IMG/VR virus record: IMGVR_UViG_2667528065_000006
From: a virus
Lineage: Duplodnaviria > Heunggongvirae > Uroviricota > Caudoviricetes
Direction: 5' to 3' (one strand)
DNA: 7,620 nucleotides
Made by a program: the position numbers and the translations under genes. Below are positions 3,943-5,684 of this stretch, piece after piece. Below the pieces are notes generated by a model. It searched no databases, was not told the origin of the DNA, and was given only the letters and a program-made list of their open reading frames with translations. The number at the start of each line of letters is the position of its first letter. The first letter of the stretch is position 1.

Positions 3943-4327
3943 AAACGTCCCCGTTTAGCGCAGAAGTCACAGGAGTTGTTCAGGCTCCGGTGATACAATT
4001 ATGGCGAATTGATTATTCATAATCAAACAAGATAAGGTCTCAAACTTCATGCAAGCCAAGATTTATTTCTGACAGAATTATACAAAGAAGCTATTGGTCA
4101 GAATCTACTCGGACTGTAAAACATACGCATAACCTTAAGCTCTCACTTTAAGCATTGTTGAAATAATAGCCGTCAAGTACAACCTTAACCACGACTGGGA
4201 TATTTCCCTAGCTACCACGAGTTGTACTGCTATTAAACTGCCGTTAAATTCAGTAAGAGAATTTCATCCGATAAGTCAAGGCATGTAAAACATAAAAATT
4301 AACAAGATATTATCATCTGCAACACTA

Positions 4328-5335
4328 TTGTATGGTATGTCAATGGCCATGTCGGTCGGGAGTTGTGCAACACCTGTCCAGACTAATTTTCCTGGTTACA
4401 CCCCGGGTGCAGATATCATTAGTGTTTCACCCACCAGAAACCAGGTCGATCTCATTGGTGATGTTGTTTATTCCCAGATAAAAGGAACTCGTTCTGTCAG
4501 ACAGCTTCACATGTCAGTTCTTGTCCCGCGAACAAATGATTTAAAACCAGCCATTATTTATTATCCCGGCGGCGGATTCATGTCTTCTGAACATGACAAA
4601 TTTATTGAAATGAGAATGGCTCTGGCTGAAGCTGGTTTTGTTGTGGCCGCTGTAGAATACAGAACAATTCCTGATACATTTCCAGCACCAGTTGAGGATG
4701 GGAAAGCTGCAATACGTTACTTGAGAGAACATGCCAGCGATTATGGGATTGATCCTCAAAGAATCGGAGTTCTGGGTGACTCTGCCGGTGGATGGCTTGC
4801 CCAGATGATGGGAACTACAAATGGTGACAAAACCTTTAATAAAGGTGACTTTCTTCAGCAATCAGCAGATGTTCAGGCAGTTGCCACACTTTATGGGATT
4901 TCTGACTTGTTGAATATTGGCGAGGGGTTCCCTGAATCAGTGCAGGAGGTTCATCGATCTCCTGCCGTAACCGAAGCCTTAATGATCAATGGCCCTGCAT
5001 TCAGAAGTTTTGCGGGAGCCCCCATAACAGCGTCAAAAGAAAAAGCGCTAAACGCCAGTCCAATCGGACATATGAAAGGAGTAAAACCCCCATTTCTTAT
5101 TATGCATGGTAGCAAAGACACTCTGGTTTCACCTGAGCAAAGCGCCAAACTATTCAGGATGTTGAAGAAGAACGGCGATAACGCTGAGTACGTTCTGGTA
5201 GAAGGGGCTGAGCATGGCGATAATACATGGTATCAGCCAATTATTATAAACAGAGTTGTTGAGTGGTTTACTAAAAACCTGGGAACCCCCATAAAAACCG
5301 CTACCCAACAACAAAAAACAAACGCTGACCTGTAA
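4328..5335 (+). CDS. Alpha/beta-hydrolase fold esterase/lipase with a putative lipoprotein signal; start uncertain (TTG 4328 or ATG 4337; in-frame ATG at 4283 is followed immediately by TAA)
   Basis: Oxyanion-hole-like YYPGGGF, nucleophile elbow GDSAGG (GxSxG), later Asp (HGSKDTLV) and His (GAEHGD) in canonical triad order. The N-terminus ...MSMAMSVGSCATP fits a lipobox (Cys +1, Ala +2). No convincing SD precedes any candidate start. Confidence 0.8.
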   Translation: MYGMSMAMSVGSCATPVQTNFPGYTPGADIISVSPTRNQVDLIGDVVYSQIKGTRSVRQLHMSVLVPRTNDLKPAIIYYPGGGFMSSEHDKFIEMRMALAEAGFVVAAVEYRTIPDTFPAPVEDGKAAIRYLREHASDYGIDPQRIGVLGDSAGGWLAQMMGTTNGDKTFNKGDFLQQSADVQAVATLYGISDLLNIGEGFPESVQEVHRSPAVTEALMINGPAFRSFAGAPITASKEKALNASPIGHMKGVKPPFLIMHGSKDTLVSPEQSAKLFRMLKKNGDNAEYVLVEGAEHGDNTWYQPIIINRVVEWFTKNLGTPIKTATQQQKTNADL

Positions 5336-5368
5336 AAAGCAGCCCGCACTTATGCGGGCTAACCTATT
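5334..5368. terminator. Candidate bidirectional terminator between the convergent hydrolase and ybcK genes
   Basis: Stem agcccgca (5341-5348) / tgcgggct (5353-5360) with loop ctta. There is an A-tract upstream (aaaaagc), which is a T-tract on the minus strand, and weak T-content downstream on the plus strand. It sits immediately after the hydrolase stop. Confidence 0.45.
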
Positions 5369-5380
5369 TCACTCGATTCA

Positions 5381-5403
5381 AAAGAAATTATTTTTAATGG
5401 GGG
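5381..5403. repeat. Proximal copy of an imperfect ~23-bp direct repeat flanking ybcK
   Basis: aaagaaattatttttaatggggg (5381-5403) against aaacaaattatttttaatgtggt (7454-7476): a 15-nt exact core aaattatttttaatg, 20/23 identical overall, same orientation, 2073 bp apart. Confidence 0.7.
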
Positions 5404-5684
5404 CGTGACCAGCCTCTCGGTGCTCAGATACTTAATGAAGTGGAGTGGCATTCAGGCAAGAGGTTAACATCACCTGTTCGCCATAACCAAGCACGTGCAC
5501 AAAGTTTGTTATCAGTGAATTGTTTTGTGATTGGGTATTGTTGAGCTACTAGAGCAAGAATGCCAACATCCAGTGGCAGTGCCTATAGTAAAACTATAGC
5601 TCAGGGCGCTTCGTTCAAGATAGTTAATATCATATTAGTCACTTTACTTTCATACCATAGCACGGTTGAAAAAGTGATTATTAC

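Follow-up and report, generated by a model that had tools for sequence, protein, structure and literature searches.

Introduction

Cargo genes at the entrance of the nin region are well known in lambdoid phages. In the DLP12 prophage of Escherichia coli K-12, this position is occupied by the ybcL-ybcM cassette. Shiga-toxin phages carry, elsewhere in their genomes, a cargo esterase named NanS-p, which is an SGNH-type enzyme. Outside phages, BD-FAE is a bifunctional feruloyl and acetyl-xylan esterase that uses a Ser-Asp-His triad (PMC8165983). Here we analyse a stretch of 7,620 nucleotides from IMG/VR record IMGVR_UViG_2667528065_000006 (the whole stretch is referred to as the window), in which the ybcL-ybcM cassette of K-12 DLP12 is replaced by an esterase cassette, that is, a single gene of the BD-FAE family running on the plus strand against the surrounding phage genes.

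The common allele of this gene codes for a predicted lipoprotein of 347 residues, and in the window the codon at its usual start is ATA in place of ATG. The explanation that in our opinion best accounts for the whole of the data, and which we consider moderately probable, is that the gene is a phage "moron" for a lipoprotein esterase acting on plant esters, and that this esterase is attenuated in the window by the ATA codon.

A carboxyl-ester hydrolase of the BD-FAE family

The full esterase reading frame comprises 347 codons and a stop (4292..5335, plus strand). A reading of the window made earlier from its letters and open reading frames (ORFs) without database searches, hereafter the sequence-only reading, had proposed an alpha/beta-hydrolase of the BD-FAE or esterase-lipase type, and this proposal was borne out. 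The Pfam BD-FAE family (PF20434) recognises the protein with 151.6 bits and an E value of 2.9e-44 against a threshold of 26.8, the match covering model positions 7-214 of 215; the other Pfam matches are to Abhydrolase_3 (81.7 bits) and Peptidase_S9. In PHROGs the protein matches phrog_3341 "esterase" (E 2.6e-129). The gene has already been annotated in generic terms in RefSeq, in GenBank phage records and in PHROGs.

The active site was examined in an alignment of 25 homologues (62-78% identity) drawn from several proteobacterial classes, in which G162, D163, S164, G166, G167, D276, H308 and the PGGGF block at residues 92-96 are invariant. The Ser-Asp-His triad, which the same reading had singled out as the feature to look for, is therefore present as S164-D276-H308, and all three codons are intact in the window. 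Ser164 (codon 4781-4783) sits in the nucleophile elbow GDSAGG (4775..4792, plus strand), which aligns with the nucleophile region of the solved structures 6nkf and 6tkx; the catalytic acid Asp276 (5117..5119) and the catalytic base His308 (5213..5215), both likewise on the plus strand, belong to the conserved blocks HGSxDxxVS and AEHGD, respectively. The PGGGF motif (4565..4579, plus strand) is the proposed oxyanion hole, and we take it to correspond to the HGGG block of Abhydrolase_3 and HSL-type esterases. Of the HSL-like (family IV) features, GDSAG is present, and the oxyanion block is PGGGF, without the His. All scores against the NCBIfam HSL subfamily models are far below the cut-offs, and none of the 17 weak NCBIfam matches (LipQ, LipP1, chloramphenicol hydrolase, Aes, PaeX, tannase and others) was adopted as an identity. 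In particular, the housekeeping acetyl esterase Aes is ruled out by a PRK10162 score of 58.1 bits against a cut-off of 389.

The AlphaFold2 model (pLDDT 74.8) has a beta-alpha-beta core and the alpha/beta-hydrolase fold. When it was compared with the PDB using Foldseek, the best match was 6nkf (E 5.8e-24), BD-FAE (6xyc/6tkx) was recovered with an E value of 1.6e-18, and a Bacteroides GH43-CE protein was matched in its esterase domain. There were 1305 PDB matches at E <= 0.001, the 50 listed being esterases, lipases or carboxylesterases without exception; a PDB search with the sequence alone concurs with these structural matches. That the protein is a carboxyl-ester hydrolase is near certain. 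As a separate observation, the C-terminus of the 25 homologues (residues 343-347) ends in a conserved ...N/D-A-x-L with an invariant terminal Leu, preceded by some ten variable residues; it may be a sorting or processing signal.

A lost start codon and a predicted export signal

The sequence-only reading had described a plus-strand gene of 335 amino acids between the minus-strand ylcH-like ORF and ybcK. The ORF, opening at a TTG (4328..5335, plus strand; mechanical ORF call), is indeed located there, but the length assigned to the gene was not upheld. The representative of its 90%-identity cluster has 347 residues and begins MKINKIL, its start mapping to position 4292 of the window, and the 347-residue form is annotated in LF82, sequence type 131 (ST131), A20, F467 and phage Perceval. 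A 57-nt query with ATG at this position is found exactly in 677 of 682 matching E. coli records, whereas the window's version with ATA is exact in only four (UPEC132, YP3, GN02350 and N50). Likewise, the 45 IMG/VR viral contigs are divided into 43 with ATG and two with ATA. The ATA (4292..4294, plus strand) is always accompanied by the substitution L33F, which is also present in the window. The in-frame codons upstream of 4328 resemble the first half of a signal peptide. On these comparisons, the 335-residue ORF is best regarded as an artefact of choosing the first start codon after a stop. Since ATG is nearly universal at 4292 and ATA occurs in few records, we infer that the normal start codon was lost in a small lineage that includes the window. 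The RefSeq model in this lineage, with 330 residues from the ATG at 4343, is truncated because of that mutation.

None of the possible substitutes offers a convincing start. A weak Shine-Dalgarno sequence, AAGG (4278..4281, plus strand), lies 10 nt before the ancestral start, its duplex with the anti-Shine-Dalgarno sequence (-3.2 kcal/mol) being within the background of the window. There is none before the TTG at 4328 (+2.2 kcal/mol), and values before 4337, 4343 and 4349 are background only; these four starts were ruled out because their Shine-Dalgarno strength is at or below the window background. A minimal "start-stop" ORF (ATG TAA, 4283-4288) lies 9 nt upstream of the esterase start and in frame with it, in ATG alleles as well.

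In the common allele, the N-terminus reads MKINKILSSATLLYGMSMAMSVGS-C25-ATP, with Lys at positions 2 and 5, an uncharged core and the lipobox SVGS-C25, so that the putative lipoprotein signal peptide together with Cys25 (codon 4364-4366) occupies 4292..4366 on the plus strand. We used a lipoprotein rule demanding K or R near the N-terminus (within the first seven residues), a hydrophobic core, a lipobox and a Cys at positions 15-35. The 347-residue common allele has all of these, and only translation from 4292 provides them: from the TTG at 4328 the Cys falls at position 13 with no K or R before it, and from the ATG at 4343 it falls at position 8. Cys25 is kept in all 45 IMG/VR alleles and also in LF82, ST131 and A20. 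The cluster representative P0001 has Tyr at this position, and the idea that Cys25 might be the minority state was rejected on the strength of those 45 copies. All aligned homologues start with a signal peptide, which in most of them is of the signal-peptidase I type, and the nearest relatives have a lipobox with Cys. By the +2 rule for lipoproteins, a protein with Ala at +2, such as this one, would be sent to the outer membrane. The protein of the common allele is thus predicted to be exported and lipidated. The "exported or lipoprotein" N-terminus claimed by the sequence-only reading fits this 347-residue ATG allele, but not the 335-residue ORF or the 330-residue RefSeq call, which have no usable signal peptide; for the copy in the window, export is doubtful because its signal peptide would have to be initiated at ATA.

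Initiation at AUA in E. coli reaches about 1-2% of the AUG level (10.1101/063800). In the ATA lineage, the signal-peptide-bearing protein would therefore be made at a few percent of the normal level at most, and any products of internal starts would stay in the cytoplasm. It is conceivable, though we think it improbable, that the change from ATG to ATA has been selected as a form of tuning, yielding either a low level of AUA-started lipoprotein or a cytoplasmic esterase from the ATG at 4337, 4343 or 4349. Such tuning could work through the residual initiation at AUA; the frame is otherwise intact, and the allele is found in four complete genomes from different hosts and in two IMG/VR contigs. 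There are only two non-synonymous differences from the nearest relative, F467, so that decay has not followed the mutation. There may also be a precedent, as non-canonical start codons are reported to have adaptive value for a gut E. coli in carbohydrate use (PMC11445065). However, the allele is rare (4/682) and perhaps represents one clone of recent origin, in which decay would not yet be visible. No Shine-Dalgarno sequence above background precedes the internal starts, and their products have no signal peptide. In addition, rusA and ylcG of the window carry indels (see below), and the prophage copy may therefore be decaying overall. We thus continue to prefer simple attenuation of a lipoprotein esterase.

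Distribution, selection and transcription

The esterase gene is present in 681 of 5426 complete E. coli genomes, compared with 3210 that have the ybcL-ybcM cassette. Together with the sub-threshold Aes score, these counts show that we are not dealing with a housekeeping esterase fixed in all DLP12 prophages. Strain LF82 has both cassettes, in different prophages, and they are therefore not mutually exclusive at the level of the genome; its ybcL-ybcM cassette adjoins a second nmpC (LF82_1504, LF82_2574 and LF82_2575; PMC9928086 S4 table). A 98.6%-identical copy of the esterase gene occurs in eight phage records representing seven distinct phages (Lambda_4C10, 4A7, D2, 1W, 3W, PhiR47_2 and Perceval), of which Perceval is an active prophage of LF82 (PMC9928086). 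The carriers listed include uropathogenic E. coli (UPEC), ST131, avian pathogenic E. coli (APEC) and LF82.

The gene shows the features expected of a moron: it is present in some and absent from other phages that are otherwise homologous, and its base composition is deviant. The GC content is 0.45 in the esterase gene and 0.36-0.40 in its upstream flank, as opposed to 0.49-0.53 in the nin genes, in keeping with the AT-rich flank noticed in the sequence-only reading; the view that this is a variable cargo position of DLP12-like and other lambdoid prophages is likewise supported. In anatomy the locus is a classic lambdoid moron. Among six alleles, pairwise dN/dS is 0.07-0.45 (dS up to 0.14), and 43 of the 45 IMG/VR loci have intact copies. 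These values point to purifying selection on the gene.

The expression evidence comes from LF82 and not from the strain of the window. In the published RNA-seq data, the orthologue (LF82_159/PERCE_52) reads, as log2(fpkm+5), 4.1-4.4 in overnight LB, 6.9-7.2 in the B1 samples, 7.0-7.3 in MB1 and 6.1-6.3 in MB6 (PMC9928086), where we read the sample names as bacteria cultured alone (B) or in macrophages (MB) for 1 h or 6 h. In B1 the adjacent NinB and NinE genes are at 2.3-3.1 and CI is at 8.0 on the same scale (PMC9928086 S1/S4 tables). NinB reads 2.7-3.1 in the samples where the orthologue is at 6.9-7.3. Relative to overnight LB, the orthologue rises by 2.26 log2 units in macrophages (q 2.7e-13; PMC9928086). 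Since the adjacent nin genes read low in the same samples, the gene is transcribed on its own in the LF82 lysogen, and it is regulated.

Relatives outside phages and the likely substrate

We surveyed the gene neighbourhoods of 80 loci of homologues, taking one genome per species. Among the homologues outside phages, the closest ones (75-79% identity) have a gene for phenolic acid decarboxylase (PF05870, E 2.3e-84) on the same strand, which ends 17-34 nt ahead of the esterase gene. The same decarboxylase is directly upstream, at a distance of 17-100 nt, in 10 of the 80 loci, from both Gamma- and Alphaproteobacteria, among them Serratia, Symbiopectobacterium, Mangrovibacter, Martelella, Acinetobacter, Azospirillum and Aeromonas. 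A LysR regulator gene is found upstream in 11 loci, on the opposite strand in 10 of them. Unbiased clustering of the neighbouring ORFs showed that only these two families, the decarboxylase and the LysR regulator, recur across lineages. The carriers of homologues are mostly associated with plants (Pantoea, Dickeya, Rhizobium, Sphingomonas, Methylobacterium) or with the gut (Sutterella, Parasutterella, Bacteroides). One homologue of 79% identity, P0003, is found on a metagenomic contig (L092 399-4322, 5396-5686) beside genes for a Peptidase_S6 serine-protease autotransporter and a PerC-like regulator; this setting, which resembles a virulence island or a plasmid, differs from that of the phage gene and from that with the decarboxylase.

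Together, an esterase releasing hydroxycinnamic acids and a decarboxylase that detoxifies them make a coherent unit, of which the phage copy captured only the esterase. Because homologues recurrently adjoin the decarboxylase gene, hydroxycinnamoyl or acetyl esters of plant origin suggest themselves as the substrate, by analogy and with about even odds. Dickeya secretes a feruloyl esterase, FaeD (PMC9007343, PMC10319131). The homologue P0080 from this genus, 65% identical and with a signal peptide, bears the UniRef name "Ferulate esterase" and is a possible orthologue of FaeD; the neighbours of the Dickeya undicola locus (MFS, TetR and FdhE) are uninformative in this respect. In the literature searched, the substrate, localisation and benefit of the phage-borne enzyme have not been characterised. 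Cinnamoyl and chlorogenic-acid esterase activity in some human colonic E. coli was described by Couteau et al. 2001, as cited in PMC4335975 and PMC4352739. It is tempting to speculate that the phage-borne lipoprotein esterase is the genetic basis of this strain-variable activity, although we regard such a link as rather unlikely. If it were true, lambdoid phages would be spreading an activity that releases dietary polyphenols among gut E. coli, including the ST131 and adherent-invasive lineages, and the rare ATG-to-ATA allele would be a natural knock-down.

The same evidence bears on two other views of what the enzyme acts upon. The first is that it is a lipase or a general carboxylesterase that attacks host lipids or esters and contributes to the fitness or virulence of E. 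coli strains of the extra-intestinal and adherent-invasive kinds, for example in macrophages. The best PDB match, 6nkf, was deposited as a lipase; UPEC, ST131, APEC and LF82 are among the carriers; the ST131 copy adjoins the gene of a large inverse-autotransporter adhesin; and the LF82 transcripts go up in macrophages. However, expression is equal in bacteria alone at 1 h (B1 6.92/7.19), that is, as high as in macrophages, and the rise is therefore not macrophage-specific. Furthermore, both the name of the family and its characterised member point to carbohydrate esters, the neighbourhoods of the homologues link them to plant phenolics, and the homologues are mainly from plant-associated bacteria. 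We consider this view unlikely, only slightly more so than selected tuning of the start codon.

The second view, put forward as speculation in the sequence-only reading, is that the enzyme modifies the cell envelope and so affects superinfection or host interaction, for example by removing O-acetyl groups from O-antigen, capsule or peptidoglycan, which would change phage receptors. A predicted envelope lipoprotein carried by a phage would suit this role. BD-FAE-type enzymes remove acetyl groups from sugars (PMC8165983), and a review proposes that prophage NanS-p esterases could act on acetylated lipopolysaccharide (PMC8065619). On the other side, known O-antigen and peptidoglycan de-O-acetylases belong, to our knowledge, to SGNH-type families, and the esterase has no SGNH match in Pfam. 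PADLOC gave no family at E <= 0.001 for either the esterase or ybcK, and the close homologues are chromosomal or plasmid-borne, occur in many non-lysogenic contexts and adjoin the decarboxylase rather than envelope biosynthesis genes. The proposal has thus gained no positive support, the neighbourhoods point elsewhere, and we think a role of this kind very unlikely. Plant-derived esters remain the substrate class that we favour.

Layout of the window and a recombination-prone junction

The 7.6-kb window comes from a DLP12-like lambdoid prophage, of which it covers the nin and early-right part in the orientation opposite to that of K-12. Its genes are, in order, essD on the minus strand, an nmpC/ompC-type porin on the plus strand, and quuD, ylcG, rusA, ybcO, ninE, ybcN and the ylcH-like ORF, all on the minus strand; then follow the single plus-strand ORF and the large serine recombinase gene ybcK on the minus strand. 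From position 2775 on, the window is identical to E. coli UPEC132. Screening the entire window against Rfam at E <= 1 revealed no known RNA family. Compared with the otherwise near-identical copy in UPEC132, 33 bp close to the 3' end of the porin gene (1693-1725) are duplicated in tandem and in frame, which repeats DTDDIVAVG and gives 371 residues instead of 360. Three insertions relative to UPEC132 (at 2507, 2626 and 2767-2774) add 1 nt to ylcG and 1 nt plus 8 nt to rusA, breaking the frames of both genes, so that rusA is seen as the overlapping ORFs 2572..2745 and 2631..2939. These insertions represent either real decay of the prophage copy or assembly errors.

According to BLASTN, homology to K-12 spans 1731-4027 and 5646-7620. 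Since it stops at 4027 and resumes at 5646, the non-homologous slot is 4028-5645, which measures 1618 bp here and 1813 bp in K-12. The annotation of K-12 DLP12 places ybcL and ybcM between ybcK and ylcH on the strand of their neighbours, as the sequence-only reading had stated. The last phage gene before the slot is the ylcH-like ORF of 33 residues (3841..3942, minus strand), an annotated CDS in the 100%-identical UPEC132 record that lies in the block homologous to K-12 ylcH. It is followed by intergenic DNA common to K-12 DLP12 that forms the left edge of the slot (3943..4027). The right edge is formed by DNA shared with K-12 downstream of the ybcK stop (5646..5684), beyond which lies ybcK itself (5685..7211, minus strand; Pfam Resolvase, Recombinase and Zn_ribbon_recom, and annotation).

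Within the slot, an AT-rich region specific to the cassette (4028..4291, 264 bp), presumably the promoter region of the plus-strand gene, stays with the gene and with ylcH-ybcN in all 45 IMG/VR loci, whatever the arrangement. A weak TTGTAC-17-TAAATT at 4222-4250, found by eye, is not claimed as a promoter. The downstream flank of some 350 bp, described as non-coding in the sequence-only reading, turned out to hold two features. Five nucleotides after the esterase stop there is a G+C-rich hairpin (5340..5361) with a U-run on the minus strand, detected by a terminator scan and RNA folding; it folds with -21.8 kcal/mol (z -3.9) on the minus strand and -14.8 kcal/mol (z -2.2) on the plus strand. 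By analogy with lambda tR2, it resembles a terminator that would act on the early-right transcript of the phage on its way into the nin region, and it is only a weak terminator for the esterase transcript. Further on lies a decayed gene for a P22 antirepressor C-terminal domain (P22AR-C; 5408..5573, minus strand), recognised by TBLASTN and by DNA matches within annotated P22AR-C genes of other prophages. The relic is 67% identical over 46 amino acids to the intact 99-residue L094 gene, whose product matches PF10548 (E 9e-13), and it has lost its start and acquired a frameshift and an in-frame stop. Intact 99-residue versions of P22AR-C follow ybcK in other prophages (e.g. L094 3308-3607).

What lies beyond the esterase gene changes from phage to phage. 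The 60 nt after its stop (5340-5402, hairpin included) are identical to the DNA directly downstream of emrE in F467 (L095 2501-2560), which suggests, as far as the sequences can tell, a repeated terminator module at recombination joints. A 38-nt stretch (L001 15594-15631) resembles the emrE-proximal intergenic region of the same prophage with 84% identity. Only 172 genomes have the downstream segment in full. Among the 45 IMG/VR loci, the neighbour on the far side is a gene of about 4 kb for an inverse autotransporter in 21, making the ST131 arrangement the commonest; it is ybcK with the relic, as in the window and LF82, in 13 or 14, and emrE directly followed by the hairpin in four. The inverse autotransporter gene (intimin/invasin-like, 3.9-4.3 kb; L003 7107-11372 in ST131, L005 7036-10944 in strain A20) is convergent with the esterase gene, 36 nt from its stop, and replaces both ybcK and emrE. 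Of the slot between ylcH and ybcK that the sequence-only reading had drawn, the ylcH side is therefore confirmed, but ybcK is just one of at least three neighbours on the other side. It is more apt to speak of an esterase gene joined to the ylcH side of a junction prone to recombination than of a slot with ybcK as its border.

Discussion

Lambdoid phages carry, where the nin region begins and in antisense orientation to the early-right operon, a cargo gene that we propose to be of benefit to the host. Its ancestral product would be a 347-residue pre-lipoprotein, exported by Sec, lipidated at Cys25 and cleaved by signal peptidase II. The mature protein would be tethered in the cell envelope, in the outer membrane if Ala at +2 is any guide, and would act there as an envelope-bound serine carboxyl-ester hydrolase through Ser164, Asp276 and His308 and the putative PGGGF oxyanion hole. 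Its likeliest substrates would be plant-derived hydroxycinnamoyl (feruloyl, coumaroyl or caffeoyl) esters, acetyl esters, or both, in the gut.

Several observations weigh against this proposal. The decarboxylase neighbour is present in just 10 of the 80 species loci. The phage cassette has no decarboxylase remnant and no flanks shared with the non-phage homologues, homology being confined to 4326-5297, and we know of no phenolic acid decarboxylase in E. coli. With the decarboxylase absent from the phage cassette, the logic of the pathway is not directly transferable. The identity to solved or characterised enzymes is at most about 31%, and only 24-25% to BD-FAE, and the best structural match (6nkf) is annotated as a lipase. 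In the AlphaFold2 model, the N-terminal 50 residues and the loop 233-243 have low confidence, and the lipobox rule was hand-coded after the PROSITE PS51257 pattern, not taken from SignalP or LipoP. No plus-strand sigma-70 consensus was found upstream of 4292, where the number of sites is no higher than in shuffled sequences. Finally, the LF82 orthologue reaches about 3.8-fold in overnight LB, which is below the 5-fold threshold used there for morons (PMC9928086).

Some of these points could be taken to mean that the gene is a functionless passenger, a captured operon fragment that hitch-hikes in the nin region with no benefit to phage or host, given that it came without its decarboxylase partner or native flanks, has no recognised promoter, was not counted as a moron in LF82 in LB and lies near a gene relic; however, the dN/dS values, the 43 intact copies out of 45, the Cys25 kept in all 45, the regulated transcription in LF82 well above that of the flanking genes, and the maintenance of the gene in three genomic arrangements and in viable phages make this the least credible of the explanations considered.

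Should the substrate assignment of the plant-ester lipoprotein esterase be right, about one in eight sequenced E. coli would carry, by way of a mobile lambdoid phage, an enzyme anchored in the envelope that releases ferulic, caffeic or acetic acid from plant esters of the diet, the carriers including the pandemic ST131 lineage and the Crohn's-associated LF82. It would also be the second case, after NanS-p, of prophages widening the gut nutrient and xenobiotic repertoire of E. coli, and the old observation of chlorogenate-hydrolysing E. coli would become directly testable. The locus also holds a lesson for annotation: the 330-residue RefSeq model is truncated by a start mutation, and the seemingly "empty" DNA is a decayed antirepressor gene.

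Comparison with known systems

The closest solved relative of the phage esterase is Lip_vut4 (6NKF), an esterase/lipase from a goat-rumen metagenome, which matches residues 48-330 with about 31% identity (phmmer E 1.2e-36). The two agree in structure (Foldseek TM 0.70/0.80), and the positions of GDSxGG, D and H align. Lip_vut4 differs in that its deposited chain has no signal peptide and it is not phage-borne. BD-FAE (6TKX/6XYC), the founder of PF20434, belongs to the same Pfam family and is recovered both by sequence (E 1.8e-21) and by Foldseek (E 1.6e-18), although the two proteins are only 24-25% identical. BD-FAE comes from a xylan-utilisation locus of Bacteroidetes, whereas the phage gene stands alone, and the phage esterase possesses a predicted lipoprotein signal peptide and is longer at the N-terminus by about 50 residues.

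Much closer in sequence are the decarboxylase-paired esterases (P0002 and P0004; Serratia, Symbiopectobacterium, Mangrovibacter and Azospirillum), which are 57-79% identical over the mature protein and are exported. The phage gene probably derives from the lineage of these enzymes of Enterobacterales and Alphaproteobacteria. The paired esterases have the decarboxylase upstream and usually an opposite-strand LysR gene, whereas the phage copy has neither and no flanking DNA in common with them. Of the Dickeya feruloyl esterases FaeD and FaeT (CE10 in PMC10319131), FaeD leaves the cell through the Out type II secretion system and is soluble, in contrast to the phage esterase, which is a predicted lipoprotein.

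Two comparisons concern cargo genes of lambdoid prophages themselves. The ybcL-ybcM cassette has the same position at the ylcH/ybcK junction, its cargo is likewise unrelated to phage growth, and YbcL is periplasmic. However, it has no sequence similarity to the esterase, consists of two genes on the strand of the phage genes and is far commoner (3210 against 681 of 5426 genomes). NanS-p of Shiga-toxin phages is a different protein, as the esterase of the window matches only Pfam families of the alpha/beta-hydrolase type. It is a sialate O-acetyl esterase encoded in the late region downstream of stx and co-transcribed with the late genes, whereas the esterase gene is antisense in the nin region. 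Nevertheless, NanS-p is likewise a cargo esterase of lambdoid prophages that broadens the range of what a lysogen can exploit in the gut, and as such it is the functional precedent for the gene described here (PMC8065619).

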